Origin: Verrucomicrobiia bacterium | GTDB taxonomy: Bacteria > Verrucomicrobiota > Verrucomicrobiia > Limisphaerales > UBA1319 | Direction: 5' to 3' | Assembly: GCA_963664225.1 (NCBI GenBank) | Contig: OY760937.1 | Coordinates: 3,168,001 to 3,232,000, forward strand | Length of the DNA: 64,000 bases | In this document: one piece after another, positions 4,079 to 46,818 of the stretch | Layout: each line of letters opens with the position of its first letter | How positions within the stretch are numbered: the stretch's first letter is position 1 | Position numbers and translations under genes: made by a program | Notes under the pieces: generated by a model | What the model saw: the letters and a program-made list of their open reading frames with translations, nothing else | What the model was told of the DNA's origin: nothing | Databases searched by the model: none

Positions 4079-5002
4079 TTAATTTGAGAGTGCAAAATCT
4101 GCGTTTTTGAGGATTTGGTTCATCAGGACAATGAGTTTGCGCATGACGGCGGTGAGCGCGACTTTGGCGGGCTTGCCCGCCAATCGGAGTCGTTCGTAGA
4201 ACTCCTTGAGTTGGCGATTGCAGCGCGCAGCCACCAGGGCGGCCATGTAGAGGGCACGTCTAACGGCGGCTCTTCCGCCACCGATGGAGCGGCGGCCTTG
4301 CCACTGGCCGCTTTCTCGAGGATGTGGAGCCAGTCCGGCCAAGGCGGCGGCCTGCCCCCGATTGAGCGTGCCCAACTCGGGCAGCTCAGCCAAAACCCCC
4401 AAGGCGGTAATCGCGCCCACCCCGGTGATGGCTTCGAGTTTTTTTGCGCGTTCATCCAGTTCTGTGGTTTTCTGGCGCAGCGCTTTGAGTTGGGTCTCGA
4501 TATGCTCCAGATCCCGTTCCAATCGACGCAGCAGGCTCTGGGCCTGGCGGCGCAACTTGGGCAGCGTGAGGCGTTCGATCTGATGGCGCTGGCTAATAAG
4601 CAGATCAAGGATCTGAGTGCGGCGGCGAACCAGTTCGGTCAACTGCTCCTCCACCTCGGAACGCGCGGGCGTGGGTTTGGGGGCGAAGGCCTGCCCATAG
4701 GCGGAGAGGACGGCGGCATCTATACGGTCGGTTTTGGCCCGTTGTCCCTGGGCGCGGGCGGGATTGATGATGCTGACAGGAATGCTGGCATGATGGAGGG
4801 CGTCAGCCACCTCACGCTCGTAGCCGCCGGTGGCTTCACAGATGACGTGAGCGCCGGGATGCTGCGCCAGGAGTTTGACGAGCTGGCGATGACCGGCGGC
4901 GGTATTGGGCAGATGGTGGGAACGACCGGCCAGTTGGAGATCAAGACTCAGCTTGGCAATATCCAAACCAGCGTAGATAGTGGTCATAGTGTTCTGGCTC
5001 AT
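4079..5002 (-). CDS. IS110 transposase/bridge recombinase (DEDD RuvC-like + Tnp domain)
   Basis: Motifs GLDIAK, CEATGGYE, AKTDRID, GLAPHPRESG, GGRAAVRRALYM. Confidence 0.93.
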   Translation of the reverse strand: MSQNTMTTIYAGLDIAKLSLDLQLAGRSHHLPNTAAGHRQLVKLLAQHPGAHVICEATGGYEREVADALHHASIPVSIINPARAQGQRAKTDRIDAAVLSAYGQAFAPKPTPARSEVEEQLTELVRRRTQILDLLISQRHQIERLTLPKLRRQAQSLLRRLERDLEHIETQLKALRQKTTELDERAKKLEAITGVGAITALGVLAELPELGTLNRGQAAALAGLAPHPRESGQWQGRRSIGGGRAAVRRALYMAALVAARCNRQLKEFYERLRLAGKPAKVALTAVMRKLIVLMNQILKNADFALSN

Positions 5003-8294: not shown

Positions 8295-11120
8295 ATGGCA
8301 ATGGACTATAAAAATTCGTTGAATTTGCCCAAGACGGACTTCCCCATGAAGGCCGATCTGGTGTCCCGGGAACCCCAGCGTCTGGAAAAGTGGGAGTCGG
8401 GCCAACTGTATGAAAAAATCCTGGCCCGGCGGGCGGCGGCCTCGCGGTTTATTTTGCATGACGGGCCGCCGTTCGCCAATGGGGATGTGCACATCGGCAC
8501 GGCGCTGAACAAGATTCTCAAGGATTTCATCATCAAGTACCACACGTTGCGCGGGCAGAACGCCCCCTATGTGCCGGGCTGGGATTGCCATGGGCTGCCC
8601 ATCGAATTCAAAGTGGTGCAGGAGCTTCGCAAAAAGGCCGGGGAAGCCGCCGCGGGGGCCGATGCCGCCACGATTCGCAAGGAATGCGCGGCGTATGCGC
8701 GCAAGTATATCGATTTGCAGCGGACGCAATTCAAGCGCCTGGGTGTGCTCGGGGATTGGGAGCATCCCTACCTGACGTTGGACCCCGCGTATGAAGCCGC
8801 GGAGCTGGGAATGTTCGCGGATATCGTGGACAAGGGCTTCGTTTACCGGGGCAAGAAACCGGTGTATTGGAGCATCCCGTGCCGCACCGCGCTGGCCGAG
8901 GCCGAGGTGGAATACCAGGACCATGTGAGCCAGAGCGTGTTTGTGAAATTCCCGGTGATCGGCCGGCCCAACACCTTTGTGGTGATCTGGACGACGACGC
9001 CGTGGACGCTGCCCGCGAACCTGGCCATCGCCTTTAATTCGACCCTGAGCTACACGATCGTGCATACCGGCGATGCGAGCTACATCGTCGCTGTGTCGCT
9101 TTTAAGTTCCGTGGCGGAGAAATGCGGCTGGGAGAATTACCAGATCATGCGCAGCCTCACCGGCGAGGAACTGGCGACCTATGTCTGCCAGCATCCGTTC
9201 TGCAACCGGCCCGCGCCGTTGCTGGCGGGAGACGCCTTCGTGGAGAGCACCACCGGTTCGGGCTTTGTGCATATCGCCCCGGGCCACGGTCTGGAGGATT
9301 ATCAACTGGGCCGTCAGAATGGCTTGCCCATCTACTCCCCGGTGGACGACAACGGCTGCCTGTGTTACACGCAAGACCTGCCCGTGGAGCAGCAGATGCC
9401 CGCGTCGCTGATCGGCAAAAGCATTCTGGAGAAGAATCACAAGAGCGATGCCAACGAGGCCGTTCTGGAGATCCTGCGCGAGGGCCAGATGCTTCTGCGC
9501 CAGGAGCCTTACACGCACAGCTACCCGCATTGCTGGCGGAGCAAGACCCCGGTGATCTTCCGCGCCATGGACCAATGGTTCATCCGCATCGACCATCAGG
9601 ATTTCCGCAACCAGGCCTTGAAGGCCATCGACCAGGTGAAATGGATTCCCGACTGGGGCAAGAGCCGCATCGAGGGGGCCGTGAAATCCCGCCCGGACTG
9701 GTGCATCTCGCGCCAGCGCTGCTGGGGCGTGCCAATCCCGGCCTTTTACGACGCCGAGCGCACTCCCATCCTGGACGCGCGCATCGTGCGCAACGCCGCC
9801 GCGTTATTCGAGAAATCCGGCTCCAATGTGTGGTTCGAGAAAACCGCGGAGGAATTATGGGCGCTGCTCCGGCCCGCGGATTGGAACGGTCCCGAGGCCA
9901 CCGCGAAATCGACCGACACGCTGGACGTGTGGATCGATTCCGGTTCCTCCTCGCGCAGCGTTTTGCAGAAGCGGCCTGAGCTGGCCCATCACCTGGCGGG
10001 TGTGGACGACTGGCAGGCGGATATCTACCTCGAGGGCAGCGACCAGCATCGCGGATGGTTCCAGTCCTCGCTGTTGCTCTCCCTCGCCGGGAATGGCGCG
10101 CCTCCCTATAAGACGGTGCTCACGCACGGGTTCATGGTGGATGCGGATCGCGAGAAAATTTCCAAGAGCAAGCAGGGCCAGGGCGGTTACGAGAAACCGC
10201 AGACCTCGGAGGCCTATGTCAAAAAATATGGCGCGGACGTGGTCCGGCTCTGGGTGGCCTCGCAGGATTATCGCAACGACATCATCGTGAGCGAGGAGCG
10301 CATCAGCAAGGTGGGCGAGACCTACCGCGTGATCCGGAACTCCCTGCGCTTCCAGCTCTCGAATCTCTTTGATTTCGATCCCGCGAAGCATCTGGTCGCG
10401 CCGGAGAAGATGACCGCGCTGGACCGCTGGATTCTGGACGCCTTTGCCGTGCTGGAGACGGAAATTGCCGCCGCCTACGAGGCGAGCGAGTTCCATGTGG
10501 TCTATCAGAAGATCAGCCAGTTCGTGGCGGTGGAGCTTTCCTCCGTCTATCACGATGTGGTGAAAGACCGCCTCTACACCGACGCGGCGAATTCGAACCG
10601 CCGGCGTTCCACGCAAACCGCCCTTTACTTGCTGGCGCGGGGCCTTTGCCAGGCGCTCTCGCCCATCCTGACCTTCACTGCGGACGAGGCCTGGGAATAT
10701 CTCCCCGGCGTTCAGCCAGGCGAATCGGTCCATGCCACGGATTGGACATTATTGGCGACCCGGCGTACTGAAGAGGAGCAGGAGACCTGGAAAAAGCTGA
10801 TGCACCTGCGGGACCTCGCGCTGCCGGAGCTGGAGAAGGCGCGCCAGGCCAAGCTCATCGGCAAATCGCTTGAGGCCAAAATAACGCTGACCGGACGGGC
10901 GGCCGAATTGCCCGCAGCGGATGCCGCAAAGGAAACGCTGCGCGAGTTGCTCAACGTGTCGCAACTGGAATTGATCCTGGACGAGGCGGACGTGGTCGTT
11001 TCCGTGGCGCGCTCCGGGGGTCAGAAGTGCGAGCGCTGCTGGCGCTGGGAATTGACGGTGGGCAGCCACACAGACCACCCGACCATCTGCGGGCGCTGTG
11101 TCGAGGCCGTGACGGCGTAA
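8295..11120 (+). CDS. ileS: Isoleucine--tRNA ligase (type 1)
   Basis: HDGPPFANGDVHIG, GWDCHGLP, WCISRQR, EGSDQHRGWF, KISKS, C-terminal CERC..CGRC zinc finger. Confidence 0.97.
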   Translation: MAMDYKNSLNLPKTDFPMKADLVSREPQRLEKWESGQLYEKILARRAAASRFILHDGPPFANGDVHIGTALNKILKDFIIKYHTLRGQNAPYVPGWDCHGLPIEFKVVQELRKKAGEAAAGADAATIRKECAAYARKYIDLQRTQFKRLGVLGDWEHPYLTLDPAYEAAELGMFADIVDKGFVYRGKKPVYWSIPCRTALAEAEVEYQDHVSQSVFVKFPVIGRPNTFVVIWTTTPWTLPANLAIAFNSTLSYTIVHTGDASYIVAVSLLSSVAEKCGWENYQIMRSLTGEELATYVCQHPFCNRPAPLLAGDAFVESTTGSGFVHIAPGHGLEDYQLGRQNGLPIYSPVDDNGCLCYTQDLPVEQQMPASLIGKSILEKNHKSDANEAVLEILREGQMLLRQEPYTHSYPHCWRSKTPVIFRAMDQWFIRIDHQDFRNQALKAIDQVKWIPDWGKSRIEGAVKSRPDWCISRQRCWGVPIPAFYDAERTPILDARIVRNAAALFEKSGSNVWFEKTAEELWALLRPADWNGPEATAKSTDTLDVWIDSGSSSRSVLQKRPELAHHLAGVDDWQADIYLEGSDQHRGWFQSSLLLSLAGNGAPPYKTVLTHGFMVDADREKISKSKQGQGGYEKPQTSEAYVKKYGADVVRLWVASQDYRNDIIVSEERISKVGETYRVIRNSLRFQLSNLFDFDPAKHLVAPEKMTALDRWILDAFAVLETEIAAAYEASEFHVVYQKISQFVAVELSSVYHDVVKDRLYTDAANSNRRRSTQTALYLLARGLCQALSPILTFTADEAWEYLPGVQPGESVHATDWTLLATRRTEEEQETWKKLMHLRDLALPELEKARQAKLIGKSLEAKITLTGRAAELPAADAAKETLRELLNVSQLELILDEADVVVSVARSGGQKCERCWRWELTVGSHTDHPTICGRCVEAVTA

Positions 11121-11148
11121 GGCCGCATTAACCATTTCCGTGTGTGAG

Positions 11149-11191
11149 ACCGGGGGACAGGTCCAGGAAAACCTGCTCCCCGGTTTTTTTT
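11149..11191 (+). terminator. ileS intrinsic terminator
   Basis: ACCGGGG..CCCCGGT stem plus T-run. Confidence 0.8.
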
Positions 11192-11289
11192 ATTTGAACC
11201 CGATCCCCGGTATGGGTCGCAGACGGGTCAGTGCGCGGGTGCGGGACAAAATTCTTCTGGGAGGATCTTTATGGAACCCCTGATACGGT

Positions 11290-11590
11290 TTCCACAGGTA
11301 ATCATCCGTTGGCGAGGAGAGCCCCGGGAAGCTCCCCGTAGCCAACGGTGAATAACTGTGCCGCCGCCAAAAAATCGAGCGGTGAAAAACTTTTGTCGCC
11401 GGGGTATAATGCTTCTGGCGGCATCGCCCCGGATGGATCACGGTCATACACCCCTTGTCTTAAGAAGACTGAGGAGAGTTTACCGGCCCGTCCGACGGCG
11501 CCTGTCAAAAAGTCTGAGAGAACTATTGCCCGCGAGGCTTCCTGTATCAGGTTGACTGACGACAGCGCTCCGATGCCCCGTAACGGAGGA
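11290..11590 (+). ncRNA. Putative bridge RNA region of IS110 #2 (bounds approximate)
   Basis: Non-coding hairpin-rich leader with segments matching donor and target flanks at 11471-11480, 11517-11523 and 11544-11551. Confidence 0.65.
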
Positions 11591-11593
11591 TCT

Positions 11594-12844
11594 ATGAAAT
11601 CATGGTTGGAGATATCCTGTTTTGCCGGATTGGATTGGGCCCGGGATCATCACGATGTGGTCATCGTCGATCGAGAGGGCAAGATCGTGGAACAGTTCCG
11701 CTTCGAGCATTCCCAGGAAGGCTGGGAGCAATGGCGGAAAAAGACGGCGCCCTTCGCCCCTTTGGCGGTGGCCATTGAGACGAGCTTCGGCACGGCTGTG
11801 GACCAGCTCCTGAGGGGGGAGGCAACGGTCTATCCGGTCAATCCCAAGAGCGCCCAGCGGTATCGGGATCGCAAGGTGCCCAGCGGCAGCAAGACCGATT
11901 TTCTGGATGCCTGGTCTCTGGCCGATGCCTTGCGGATCGACGGGCACGGTTGGAAAGCGCTGGTCCCAACGGACGCGCTGACCAGCCAGTTGCAGATGCT
12001 CTGCCGGGATGAGGTTCATCTCATCGGTCAGCGCACGCTGTTCGTAAATCAATTGCAACAAGCTCTCTTGGAATACTATCCGGCGGCCCTGGAGGCCTTT
12101 GAGGATTGGACCATGGCCTCGGCGTGGGATTTCATCATTGAGTTTCCAACGCCTCGTGCGCTGGTCAAAGCCGGCAAGCGACGGTGGGAAAAGTTCCTGC
12201 ACGTTCATAAGCTCTGGCGGCCGGAAACCGCTGAAAAACGGATGGGCATTTTTGCACGGGCCGATCAGTTTTGCGGCTCGGCGGCCCTGACGGCGGCCAA
12301 GGGCACCCTGGCGGTGAGCCTGGCCAAAATGTTACGCACGTTGCAGCAGCAACTGGATGTTTATCACGCGCAAATCCAGGCCTTGTTTGCACAGCACCCC
12401 GACCATGACTTGTTCGGTTCGCTGCCCGGAGCGGGCTCGTTTTTGGCTCCACGGCTGCTGGGAGAAATCGGCGGCGGGTCGGGCCGGTTTGAAAGCGCAC
12501 AGCATCTGCAGGGCATTGCGGGCACGGCTCCTGTGAGTTATCAATCGGGACAAATCGACAAGGTCCGCATCCGCCACCACTGCGACAAGTTCCTCCGCCA
12601 TGCCGTGCATCTGTGGAGCGATTGCAGTCGCAAGAAATGTCTTTGGGCACAGGTTTACTACCAGAAAAAACGGGAAGAGGGCAAAAGCCATGCCTGCGCC
12701 TTGCGATGTCTGGGCCAGCGGTGGCTCAAAATCATCTGGAAAATGCTCCAAACCCACGCGCCCTACGATCCGGAAATACATGCCAAAAACCAGCAGCTGC
12801 ATGGTTCGTGGGTGCTGAGTCTGCAGACCAAAACCGCCAGGTAA
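11594..12844 (+). CDS. IS110 transposase (long type, 416 aa)
   Basis: GLDWARDHHD, AIETS, SKTDFLDA, GTAPVSYQSG; GGAGGA RBS before ATG 11594. Confidence 0.92.
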   Translation: MKSWLEISCFAGLDWARDHHDVVIVDREGKIVEQFRFEHSQEGWEQWRKKTAPFAPLAVAIETSFGTAVDQLLRGEATVYPVNPKSAQRYRDRKVPSGSKTDFLDAWSLADALRIDGHGWKALVPTDALTSQLQMLCRDEVHLIGQRTLFVNQLQQALLEYYPAALEAFEDWTMASAWDFIIEFPTPRALVKAGKRRWEKFLHVHKLWRPETAEKRMGIFARADQFCGSAALTAAKGTLAVSLAKMLRTLQQQLDVYHAQIQALFAQHPDHDLFGSLPGAGSFLAPRLLGEIGGGSGRFESAQHLQGIAGTAPVSYQSGQIDKVRIRHHCDKFLRHAVHLWSDCSRKKCLWAQVYYQKKREEGKSHACALRCLGQRWLKIIWKMLQTHAPYDPEIHAKNQQLHGSWVLSLQTKTAR

Positions 12845-13142
12845 TATTGGTGAATAACTTTTATGAAAAACCATTTTACAACACAGAGAACAACTCTCCT
12901 CGGTCCTCTCCCCGTTCGTGCCTCACGGGGCGAGGAGGTGGAATGCGCGATTCGCAAGGTTTTGGCTTTTGGACGCATGGAAGCAGAAAAGATCGCTGAT
13001 GGCGCACAGCGGACTAACAGCCCTATATACTTCCATGTCGTTTTAAAGCCTTTTTCGGCATGCTGAAGAATTTTGTCGCGCGCCCTCAGTGCGCGCATTT
13101 AGAAAACACGGCTTGCACTTCAAATGAAGTCTGTTTCTATAG

Positions 13143-13700
13143 TTACTTCTCGTTTAAGTCTTTAATCATTTTCGCAAAATCTGTATTACAAAGTCTTTTC
13201 ATCGCAGGGTAACCTCCTTTAAAGAAAGGACAGAGCATGACTGTTAGCTCTTTATCAGTAAACAGGCCTTCTCTATCCGTGATGAATACCACCGCTGACA
13301 CCCATGCACAAAATGCACCACATCCCGGAGCAATTATTGAAATAGCCGTATTTACATCCGAATACTGATTATACTCGCACTTGAACAGTATAAGAGGCAA
13401 AGCGGTTTCGATTAAACACAGCCCCGCGATTATTCTCGTTGCAAATCGAAGCCAGGCGGTTGGATTAATATCCGGAGTGAAGGAGCAGGAGCCATCTTTG
13501 AAATAAAAACTGCAAATAATAAAGCACGCCATTGAAGGGACAAATAATATGCATAATATTTCATCGCTTAAATGACATACATTGGTTATTTGCAATATAT
13601 ACAATACTTGATTTAACAAAAAGCATACCACAGACACCAACGCAAGCATTCTGCGGAAATGTTTCAATATCATAAAGTTTGTTTGCTCCAAAAAGGTCAC
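13143..13700 (-). CDS. AT-rich hypothetical membrane protein (~4 TM)
   Basis: Hydrophobic ORF with markedly lower GC than its flanks; start uncertain. Confidence 0.5.
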   Translation of the reverse strand: MTFLEQTNFMILKHFRRMLALVSVVCFLLNQVLYILQITNVCHLSDEILCILFVPSMACFIICSFYFKDGSCSFTPDINPTAWLRFATRIIAGLCLIETALPLILFKCEYNQYSDVNTAISIIAPGCGAFCAWVSAVVFITDREGLFTDKELTVMLCPFFKGGYPAMKRLCNTDFAKMIKDLNEK

Positions 13701-46660: not shown

Positions 46661-46705
46661 GGGCGCAGGACAAAATTCTTCCTGGAGGATCTTTGTCGAA
46701 CAACT
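46661..46705 (+). mobile_element. Solo left end of the 9-bp-TSD MITE family
   Basis: GGGCGCAGGACAAAATTCTTCCTGGAGGATCTTT matches 11237 onward. Confidence 0.65.
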
Positions 46706-46818
46706 CACTCCAACTCCCCGCTCGTGCCATGTTCAGATGTCAGGGCGAGGGAGAGGACGTGCGCGGTTGGTTGATTCGGTGGCGGCCTGTTATGGAAAGG
46801 GGCGACGCGTCATCGGGT

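Follow-up and report, generated by a model that had tools for sequence, protein, structure and literature searches.

A canonical IS110-group insertion sequence from Verrucomicrobiia whose left end very probably encodes a two-loop bridge RNA

The 64,000-nt stretch of a Verrucomicrobiia genome analyzed here (the window) very probably contains, at positions 11280 to 12895, a canonical and recently active insertion sequence (IS) of the IS110 group, the left end of which appears from its sequence to encode a two-loop bridge RNA as in IS621. With the properties of a normal IS110-family element and a bridge RNA of the standard two-loop type, it extends the known family by one member without pointing to any new mechanism. 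The case was built computationally, from protein domains, genomic copies, element boundaries, covariation within the RNA fold and covariation between guides and DNA. An initial annotation of the window had already proposed that an IS110 element here encodes a bridge RNA in its leader, and domain profiles, the fold and guide covariation all back that proposal. The main parts of the element are as follows.

11280..12895, plus strand: whole IS110-group element, both copies of the CT core included (from genome copies and flanks)
11280..11281, plus strand: left copy of the CT core dinucleotide (homologue left flanks match the left target guide right up to C(T)GATAC)
12894..12895, plus strand: right copy of the CT core dinucleotide (from homologue right ends)
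11594..12844, plus strand: transposase/recombinase gene, 416 aa; its ATG is preceded at 5 nt by GGAGG (domain profiles)
12845..12893, plus strand: short right end, 49 nt, with the -35-like hexamer TTTACA (12875-80), LD AGAGAAC (12885-91) and AA (12892-93)

The net insertion size is 1,614 bp, with the RNA carried by a left end of 312 nt. Four near-identical copies of equal length are present in the genome; compared with the window copy, 8-9 positions differ, none of which lies in a guide segment. These copies suggest recent activity of the element. An inverted-repeat scan returned no pair linking the two IS termini, and terminal inverted repeats are absent. The homologue set comprised 36 loci, the closest of them returned at 68% protein identity. 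Left ends of the homologues measured 298-376 nt by a count that runs 1 nt longer (313 nt for the window copy by that count). These relatives, a clade of ~410-aa IS110 recombinases, occur mainly in Verrucomicrobiota and Planctomycetota, and the clade may already be listed in the supplements of Durrant et al. 2024.

The transposase matched the full PF01548 profile (positions 1-155 of 155) at 4e-30, and its C-terminal Tnp domain matched PF02371 at 6.5e-14. The equivalog model NF033542, "IS110 family RNA-guided transposase," scored 176.7 bits against a cut-off of 140. Residues D14, E62, D102, D105 and S318 were invariant in 12/12 aligned proteins, S318 being located in the motif AGTAPVSYQSG. By analogy with the published D11, E60, D102 and D105 of IS621, the four acidic residues would take the corresponding roles.

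CT is the sole sequence shared by the left and right junctions, in each of the four copies and throughout the homologues. All extracted homologue right ends read ...GAAC-NN-CT followed by variable sequence, and alignment of the paralogous repeat copies to the window starts only at 12894. One paralogous site without the IS has the sequence TTGAACCC-CT-CTCCTC, and the host hairpin repeat shows CCCCTCTC in 6/7 of its unoccupied copies. Both the right target guide and the right donor guide carry an invariant AG, the complement of CT (26/26 sequences). A circle junction formed under a CT core would read ...AGAGAACAA-CT-GATACGG....

Every string named in the initial annotation sits where it was said to sit, but the junctions had been placed 2-4 nt off, at GAAC. 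This tetranucleotide is indeed present at 11274-77 and 12888-91, yet it is not a junction repeat: its left occurrence is found in two of the four copies and is replaced by CAC in the other two, with CT shared instead. We had ourselves first considered an AC/GAAC core and dropped it once the homologues were aligned. The window target reads GAAC-CC-CT and the element's own end GAAC-AA-CT; because the target happens to resemble that end, the boundaries of an IS110 element can be misplaced by a few bases when only one sequence is read. GAAC-AA-CT occurs in two repeat copies, which alone would fit an AC/GAAC junction; conceivably, though improbably, they record imprecise losses in which the last two bases of the element stayed behind.

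Among the contigs of X1, X2, X4 and X5 aligned to 10900-13300, none joined across the IS or contained a circle junction; they broke at 11276-79 and 12894-96, as expected for a repeat. One loose end of X5 at 11279 (2 records, agreement 0.87) had a different flank up to 11278, a weak hint.

RNAalifold run on 26 sequences folded the left end into two internal-loop modules, with compensatory changes in 25/31 pairs. Paired cells made up 91.2% of the alignment fold as opposed to 74.6% in shuffles (0/500 reached the observed value) and 26-45% with slid partners. The alignment fold served for the model, and minimum free energy (MFE) folds of the single sequence were not used: a 180-nt fold did not surpass shuffles (z = -0.98), and the MFE fold of the full leader paired the left IS end with the right donor guide. 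An Rfam scan of 10800-13400 on both strands gave no matches at E<=1, and Rfam 15 may hold no bridge RNA model. The upstream module and the DNA that it would read are listed below.

11431..11493, plus strand: target-binding loop module; outer stem 11431-44/11482-93, inner hairpin 11457-60/11466-69 (alignment fold)
11447..11455, plus strand: left target guide (LTG) UACACCC plus core CU (covariation)
11471..11478, plus strand: right target guide (RTG) GAGGAG plus core AG (covariation)
11479..11480, plus strand: target-loop handshake guide UU, complementary to AA (12892-93), the final IS bases ahead of the core
11273..11279, plus strand: left target half LT (GGAACCC; flanks compared by hand with the guide)
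12896..12900, plus strand: right target half RT (CTCCT; from flanks, family-wide extent 5 nt)

Helices 1 and 2, which form the target loop, showed both-sided changes in 12/15 pairs. The guides were evaluated by permutation among homologues, a control that takes the homologues as unrelated; three near-duplicates had been removed, and n was 21-24. The LTG has the sense of the top strand of LT plus core and is predicted to pair with the bottom strand. It matched its cognate flank at a mean of 6.67/8 positions versus 3.95 for non-cognate flanks (0/20,000 permutations, n=21); the core C was matched throughout, and the core U in the window copy and, by eye, in about half of the homologues. The RTG is complementary to the top strand of core plus RT (4.96/7 versus 2.16; 0/20,000 permutations, n=24). 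For the target-loop handshake, the values were 1.67/2 versus 1.25 (0/20,000 permutations, n=24), and its first position likewise exceeded every permutation. The signal per position covered RT 1-5 (0.83-0.91 versus 0.24-0.42) and LT -1 to -7, giving family-wide guide lengths of 7 for LT, 2 for the core and 5 for RT.

The initial annotation had found no convincing left-target guide, and from one sequence a left guide is indeed invisible: matches of 6 nt to the left junction in the same sense arose in 3,689/5,000 shuffles. The LTG at 11447-55 nevertheless exists. On the right, GAGGAGAGTT (11471-80) had been noted as the reverse complement of AACTCTCCTC (12892-12901) and taken for a long guide. 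The match belongs to a real RTG, but the 10-mer consists of 2 handshake nt (complementary to the last two bases of the IS), 2 core nt and 6 target nt. In the window copy, complementarity to 12892-12909 extends over 18 nt of the RNA, 11463-80 (89%). We rejected this longer stretch as a guide, since it involves a copy-specific flank and the family has no signal past RT position 5; it is treated as a by-product of purine-rich RNA meeting a pyrimidine-rich repeat.

The second module carries the guides for the ends of the element itself.

11501..11566, plus strand: donor-binding loop module; outer stem 11501-06/11561-66 and 11511-14/11554-57, inner hairpin 11528-30/11536-38 (helices 3, 4 and 6 of the alignment fold)
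11517..11523, plus strand: left donor guide (LDG) AGAGAAC, in the sense of the right IS end (12885-91)
11544..11551, plus strand: right donor guide (RDG) GUAUC plus core AG plus handshake base G (covariation)
11282..11286, plus strand: right donor half RD (GATAC), the first IS bases after the core

The LDG matched its own right end at 6.96/7 positions versus 6.28 (0/20,000 permutations, n=24), and the variants AUAGAAC, AGAGGGC and ...GAAU were each matched by the right end of the same element. The match ends 2 nt before the core, with AA between; the core C is unpaired by the LDG of the window copy, and C is present there in 14/24 elements with an extracted right end (by hand). The RDG was complementary to RD at 5/5 positions in 21/21 homologues, a value reached by 10/20,000 permutations, and its variants were compensated in L024 (GGTAC/GUACC) and in L018 and L028 (GATAT/AUAUC). 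The donor-loop handshake G complements C at 11279, the final base of the target. This first handshake base paired in 17/21 homologues versus 0.31 expected (0/20,000 permutations); the second gave no signal (1/21 homologues).

Both donor-side matches that the initial annotation had pointed out, AGAGAAC at 11517-23 and 12885-91 and GTATCAGG (11544-51) as the reverse complement of CCTGATAC (11279-86), thus proved to be real guide segments, the LDG and the RDG, and the covariation of leader guides with flanks that it had set as its test came out in favor (n=21-24). A chance control based on a single sequence, 5,000 dinucleotide-preserving shuffles of leader 11300-11593, reached the 10-mer match in 8 cases, the 8-mer in 124 and the 7-mer AGAGAAC in 692, so that the last was not significant alone.

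By analogy with the IS621 literature, the element would be transcribed, an RNA-protein complex and a circle would form, and strand-exchange chemistry would follow. The target loop (11431-11493), which comes first, would read the target. The element's joined ends would be recognized by the donor loop (11501-11566), with AGAGAAC directed at the right end and GUAUC-AG at the left. Strand exchange at the CT core would be carried out by the DEDD/Ser recombinase (11594-12844), and the handshake guides (2 bases after the RTG, 1 after the RDG) could pair only with partner DNA after top-strand exchange. With exchange at a CT core read by these guides, the target would therefore be the 14-bp site LT7-CT-RT5. 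In the genome, this would correspond to nnn(A/C)ACCC-CT-CnCCn, which has a MITE/REP-like repeat among its places.

Scored by hand against the guides, the four occupied sites reached 10, 9, 9 and 9 of 13, and scores of at least 9/13 were found at only 6.7e-4 of 538,889 genomic CT sites. The genome holds no perfect 13/13 target site. The left-target match in this genome is partial: LT agrees with the LTG at 4/7 positions in the window copy and at 5/7 in the three other copies. RT complementarity to the RTG was 5/5 in the window copy and 4, 4 and 3 of 5 in the others. In the window, the element interrupts the following repeat.

11237..11279, no strand assigned: left part of the MITE-like host repeat hit by the IS; terminal inverted repeat 11237-57
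12896..13085, no strand assigned: right part of the same host repeat; REP-like hairpin CTCTCCCCG...CGGGGCGAG; terminal repeat 13065-85

The terminal repeats of this host element (11237-57 with 13065-85) are 21 nt long and match at 90%. Two of the four IS copies were inserted 17 nt upstream from the hairpin CTCTCCCCG...CGGGGCGAG. The other two occupy sites without a hairpin, so a structural gate is not required by the element.

Could the leader instead be a non-canonical bridge RNA, as initially annotated, with a GAAC or AC core, an IS at 11278-12891, a 10-nt right guide excluding the core and no LTG? Such an element would give the circle junction ...AGAGAAC-CCCTGATAC.... GAAC stands at both places in 2/4 copies and AC in 4/4, two repeat copies read ...GAAC-AACTC..., like empty sites, and the 10-mer match is rare by chance, as given above. 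We nevertheless consider this reading very improbable. Homologue left flanks match the guide up to the C(T) of CTGATAC, the AG at the 3' end of both right-hand guides is invariant, the unoccupied hairpin-repeat copies carry CC-CT and not AA-CT in the same 6/7 cases, and a degenerate left-end fragment (L005) has AT where a GAAC/AC junction requires AC. Right-flank pairing that ends at RT position 5 throughout the family speaks against a 10-nt guide, and the LTG at 11447-55 against its absence. It is scarcely credible, too, that the leader is a mere structured 5' untranslated region regulating the transposase, with end matches that reflect conserved protein-bound termini rather than RNA guidance. 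A hairpin at 11568-72/11584-88 could mask the ribosome-binding site, and donor-side AGAGAAC and GUAUCAG are nearly invariant, which makes their match alone little informative. However, the LTG and RTG segments vary together with host flanks unique to each homologue, a pattern that conservation of IS ends cannot produce, and the rare donor-side variants are compensated as well (L024, L018, L028 and the AUAGAAC group).

Two candidate promoter sites and two hairpins of the left end are listed next.

11284..11289, plus strand: -10-like hexamer TACGGT (3/6) of a putative circle-junction promoter
11382..11410, plus strand: internal sigma-70-like site GTGAAA-17-TATAAT (10/12; promoter scan)
11293..11360, plus strand: long hairpin, conserved in the family, in the left end's 5' part; arms CACAG.GUAAUCA and UGAAUAAC.CUGUG
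11417..11428, plus strand: small 5' hairpin GGCG-GCAU-CGCC directly before the target-binding loop (similar small hairpins in homologues, by eye)

The junction promoter proposed initially, TTTACA (12875-80) facing TACGGT (11284-89), keeps its 17-nt spacer over the joined ends with the corrected boundaries (13 + 2 + 2 nt). It matches 5/6 plus 3/6, or 8/12, consensus positions, which is under the 9/12 criterion of the scanning tool, applied here by hand as the scan is blind to junctions. A -35-like hexamer with at least 4/6 matches was present in 26/31 right ends and a -10-like hexamer with 3/6 in 19/24 left ends, where its TA also belongs to the donor site. The junction promoter is plausible but weak, and promoters of this kind have already been described for the IS110 family (PMC11208160; PMC11208158).

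Alternatively, the RNA of the window copy might be made mainly in integrated copies, from the internal promoter at 11382-11410 rather than from the circle, a possibility that we regard as doubtful. The internal site outscores the junction site and is the only promoter-like site found by the scan in 11100-13100. Its predicted start, ~11417, coincides with the opening base of the small hairpin preceding the target loop, and the resulting RNA of ~150-180 nt would be near the 177 nt reported for IS621 (PMC11208160; PMC11208158). One promoter-like site per 2 kb is, however, the level of shuffled sequence (mean 0.8), and only 2/26 family members have a site there that passes these criteria, for which reason we rejected the internal promoter as a family feature. 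The frequency of the right-end -35-like hexamer also argues against this alternative, as does conservation of the long 5' hairpin, which suggests transcription or some other use of the upstream left end.

We compared the element with IS621 of E. coli by published description. The bridge RNA of IS621 is described with the layout LTG-RTG-LDG-RDG, a CT core and handshakes (Durrant 2024, PMC11208160; Hiraizumi 2024, PMC11208158). As far as these descriptions go, the two elements share a DEDD RuvC-like domain with a Ser-bearing Tnp domain, an RNA in a long left end opposite a short right end, and a target loop before the donor loop. In both, each loop's 5' side has top-strand sense and the 3' side is complementary to the top strand; the LTG has 9 nt (7+2), RT is read over 5 nt, and handshake bases lie directly 3' of the RTG and RDG. 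Insertion into repeat elements is likewise common to the two, and the putative right-end -35 facing a putative left-end -10 would be a further shared feature. The geometry had initially been called different and unlike IS621; order, strand logic, CT core, 7+2 LTG, 5+2 RTG and handshakes all agree. The bridge-RNA rules established for IS621 are thus confirmed, position by position, for a distant clade whose recombinase and left end are longer.

Several differences from the IS621 descriptions were found. The protein has 416 aa, and the left end is 312 nt rather than 191 nt, the extra ~130 nt holding the conserved long hairpin. The LDG of IS621 reaches the first core base, whereas the 7-nt LDG here ends short of the core; the RDG is discontiguous in IS621 and contiguous here. 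Unlike in IS621, only the first donor-loop handshake base covaries, and the window copy has an internal near-consensus promoter. It is conceivable, though improbable in our estimate, that the clade carries control modules absent in IS621, namely the ~130-nt hairpin extension, a lineage-specific internal promoter and the GAAC-AA-CT loss footprints.

ISPpu9 and ISPpu10 of Pseudomonas putida are IS110 elements reported to insert into REP-type repeats (bioRxiv 10.64898/2026.03.19.712850; PMC12288879). Compared by insertion site only, they resemble the present element in its insertion beside the GC-rich stem-loop of a repeated intergenic element (2/4 copies) and differ from it in the 2/4 copies at sites without a hairpin. 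Elements of the IS1111 group have a recombinase of the same family and also share a sub-terminal repeated motif. They are described as carrying the RNA in a long right end; here both loops lie in the left end, and the right end is without a structured RNA module, which places the element outside that group. The practical value is modest: annotated guides, core and handshake bases, a 14-bp target and at least 25 natural guide/target pairs. The element could serve as a candidate orthogonal bridge recombinase.

The long hairpin of the left end has arm ends CA(N)AG and CT(N)TG, the third base of which changes in a compensating manner between homologues. When RNAalifold was applied to the left end's first 150 nt, it found just 9 pairs at near-zero energy, so that the case for the hairpin comes mainly from inspecting the alignment by eye. 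The arm motif GGUGAAUAACU of this hairpin appears again in the right end, immediately upstream of the junction -35. The right end contains the repeated motif GGTGAATAACT.

The element is a well-behaved IS110-group insertion sequence, and its bridge RNA is canonical. Its 416-aa open reading frame matched PF01548 (4e-30) and PF02371 (6.5e-14) in a profile search and scored 176.7 bits against the NCBIfam equivalog NF033542, "IS110 family RNA-guided transposase" (cut-off, 140). The source genome (G000), a single contig (C1) of 5.78 Mb, holds four full copies of equal length, with 8-9 differences from the window copy, all of them outside the guide segments.

Features in window coordinates (guides as RNA)
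11237-11279 and 12896-13085: host MITE-like element of ~230 bp, bounded by 21-nt terminal inverted repeats (GGGTGCGGGACAAAATTCTTC), with a REP-like hairpin inside
11382-11410: internal promoter-like site GTGAAA-17-TATAAT, 10/12
11447-55: left target guide (LTG), UACACCC + CU
11471-78: right target guide (RTG), GAGGAG + AG
11479-80: target-loop handshake, UU
11517-23: left donor guide (LDG), AGAGAAC
11544-50: right donor guide (RDG), GUAUC + AG
11551: donor-loop handshake, G
11594-12844 (+): transposase, 416 aa, with GGAGG 5 nt before the ATG

Two degenerate fragments in the same genome, L005 (G000:C1:5568848-5569005) and L007 (G000:C1:3260801-3260860), are solo left ends of related elements (87-88% identity); neither extends as far as the bridge RNA modules, and both look like remnants of earlier insertions. 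Genome-wide, PF01548, the IS110 DEDD domain, had 14 matches of several types, those other than the four studied copies being open frames of 285-345 aa. A type with a single copy falls within the window, at 4571-4969 (-), and is presumably the "first" IS110 of the initial annotation.

The sequence common to the four copies has AC-CC-CTGATAC... as its left limit and ...AGAGAACAA-CT-C as its right limit. Because the copies share the sequence of both ends, the source genome alone cannot separate an AC core from a CT core. The AC core (IS 11278-12891), which was considered first, was rejected for CT (IS 11282-12895) on five lines of sequence evidence. In 36 related loci, mostly from MAGs of Verrucomicrobiota and Planctomycetota and with protein identities of 30-68% (53-68% for 33 loci), the element starts with CTGATAC and ends with ...GAAC-NN-CT, and locus-specific host sequence adjoins those CTs. 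The RTG and the RDG both finish in AG, the complement of CT, which is invariant in 26/26 sequences. A strict host hairpin repeat occurs nine times in the genome, two copies being occupied by the element; six of the seven unoccupied copies read CCCCTCTC (one of these six, at G000 position 797221, is TTGAACCC-CT-CTCCTC) and the seventh reads GAAC-AA-CTC. The diverged fragment L005 keeps the CT and reads AT at the place of the supposed AC core. Finally, the alignment of paralogous repeats to the window begins only at 12894. GAAC, previously read as the junction repeat, is found on the left side in only two of the four copies. Its presence at both junctions is a coincidence: the left half of the target (GAAC-CC-CT) resembles the right end of the element (GAAC-AA-CT).

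The leader, the left-end DNA upstream of the transposase gene, does encode a bridge RNA, as originally proposed, judging by its fold and its covariation in homologues. It was aligned for the 28 of 36 loci with enough upstream sequence; L023, L030, L031, L037, L043, L044, L046 and L047, truncated or 30-34% identical, were left out. From a conserved ACGG to a conserved CAG the leader measures 110-112 nt in every member. For 26 sequences (the window and 25 others, with near-duplicates L020, L026 and L038 removed), RNAalifold returned two modules, in each of which an outer stem is followed by an internal loop and capped by an inner hairpin. Compensatory changes were present in 25 of the 31 pairs, and 91.2% of cells were paired, as opposed to 74.6% in shuffles (0/500 reach the observed value) and 26-45% when partners were slid by 1-3 columns. 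A two-pair "helix" inside the donor guides (alignment columns 111-112 with 138-139) is probably not real.

Guide segments of every homologue were taken by anchors and compared both with the flank or end of the same locus and with the corresponding DNA of the other loci, using 20,000 permutations of the pairing per test and dropping the same near-duplicates. The guides covaried with DNA on all four arms and at the handshake positions, including the leader-flank covariation that the initial annotation had suggested checking.

Covariation of guides with DNA (LT and RT, left and right target halves): n; cognate; non-cognate; permutations reaching the observed value
LTG with LT7+C: 21; 6.67/8; 3.95; 0/20,000
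RTG with RT7: 24; 4.96/7; 2.16; 0/20,000
Target-loop handshake with last two IS bases: 24; 1.67/2; 1.25; 0/20,000
Donor-loop handshake, first base, with last target base: 21; 17/21; 0.31; 0/20,000
Donor-loop handshake, second base: 21; 1/21; 0.10; 19,571/20,000 (no signal)
LDG with right end: 24; 6.96/7; 6.28; 0/20,000
RDG with left end: 21; 5.00/5; 4.72; 10/20,000

The LTG test took the best of six registers for cognate and non-cognate pairs alike and kept L033 (score 3) and L040 (score 4), whose doubtful left end or anchor lowers its signal. By position, right-flank pairing was 0.83-0.91 versus 0.24-0.42 at RT 1-5 and at background from position 6; left-flank identity spanned -1 to -7, with values inflated by choosing the register on the cognate pair only (L033 and L040 left out). 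Donor-side guides were near-invariant and their rare variants compensated: GGTAC/GUACC and AGAGGGC/AGAGGGC in L024, GATAT/AUAUC in L018 and L028, and an AUAGAAC group whose own right ends match the LDG variant. The permutations treat the remaining loci as if they were unrelated; this matters little for the target-side tests because the flanks are unrelated host DNA. The left flanks of L017 and L013 fit the LTG only with one extra core-adjacent C skipped, and L020, from the same MAG as L017, has GT in place of CT; these oddities may reflect either homopolymer errors in MAGs built from long reads or genuine insertion off register.

All strings named in the initial annotation are present at the coordinates it gave. 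Among 5,000 dinucleotide-preserving shuffles of the leader, its 10-nt reverse-complement match to the right junction was rare (8 shuffles) and its 8-nt match to the left end uncommon (124), but its 7-nt same-sense match to the right end was unremarkable alone (692). Same-sense agreement with the left junction over 6 nt was at chance level (3,689). Given these rates, a single sequence shows three of the four guides and the fourth is invisible. That fourth guide, for which the initial annotation had found no convincing candidate, is the LTG at 11447-55, and the supposed long right-hand guide is a 10-mer of two handshake, two core and six target bases.

In IS621, the target loop precedes the donor loop, the CT core takes part in the pairings, two handshake bases lie directly 3' of the RTG and RDG and pair after exchange with positions 6-7 of the other DNA, and some orthologues have longer RTGs (Durrant et al. 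2024, PMC11208160; Hiraizumi et al. 2024, PMC11208158). The element follows every one of these rules, with a 14-bp site LT7-CT-RT5, contrary to the geometry first suggested. The differences are of degree. Unlike in IS621, the LDG match stops two bases short of the core, these two being the bases read by the target-loop handshake; a C able to pair with the first core base was counted by hand in 14/24 extracted right ends but is lacking in the window copy. The RDG is contiguous, signal is found in only one donor-loop handshake base, and the left end measures 312 nt, as opposed to the 191 nt stated for IS621.

Combining the computed domains, copies, boundaries, fold and covariation with mechanistic steps taken from IS621, we propose that the bridge RNA would be transcribed and bound by a recombinase tetramer, its donor loop holding the circle junction ...AGAGAACAA-CT-GATAC... 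and its target loop nnnnACCC-CT-CTCCT. Ser318 would cut the top strands after CT, the exchanged strands would be captured by the handshake bases UU and G, and the Holliday junction would be resolved on the bottom strands.

The guides imply the target TACACCC-CT-CTCCT(C). No perfect site was found among the 538,889 CT sites scored in the genome; the best reach 11/13, and 361 (6.7e-4) score at least 9. Reconstructed by hand from their flanks, the four sites that carry the element score 10, 9, 9 and 9, with mismatches at LT positions 1-3 and RT position 2. Two lie in the MITE-like repeat with 21-nt terminal inverted repeats, the core being 17 nt before the REP-like hairpin, and two are in sequence without this hairpin. 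Several copies of the host repeat occur elsewhere, including a cluster near G000 position 3,529,500-3,531,200. Two copies (L006, G000:C1:445656-445773, and window ~46700-46740) read GAAC-AA-CT-C, as opposed to CC-CT-C in six others that are unoccupied; the IS itself ends in exactly these four bases, AA-CT. The two may be footprints of IS loss by crossover within GAAC, the 4 nt that the left half of the target has in common with the right end of the IS, or the repeat may vary naturally at this point.

The putative circle-junction promoter, TTTACA-17-TACGGT, has the proposed hexamers and spacing and matches 8/12 consensus positions. Its -35-like hexamer matches at least 4/6 in 26/31 right ends and its -10-like hexamer, whose TA overlaps the donor site, 3/6 in 19/24 left ends. 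A promoter scan of 11100-13100 found GTGAAA-17-TATAAT as the sole site (one versus a mean of 0.8 in shuffles); it is predicted to start RNA at a small hairpin just before the target loop and is present in only 2/26 family members.

The 11-nt motif GGTGAATAACT occurs twice: at 11347-11357, where it forms the 3' arm of a long, conserved hairpin (11293-11360), and at 12849-12859, immediately past the stop codon of the transposase and ahead of the junction -35. In most homologues the 5' arm, AAAGTTATTCA, repeats the motif in inverted form with good agreement, and thus the ends carry an ~11-nt sub-terminal inverted repeat at unequal distances from the core. Directly upstream of the element, a 941-aa open reading frame (8295-11120, +), which by eye we take to resemble isoleucyl-tRNA synthetase, ends ~160 nt before it; a hairpin resembling a terminator, with a T-run, occupies 11150-11180. 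In the MFE fold, CUCCG (11568-11572) pairs with CGGAG (11584-11588) and would cover the ribosome-binding site GGAGG, a pairing that could provide translational control of the transposase.
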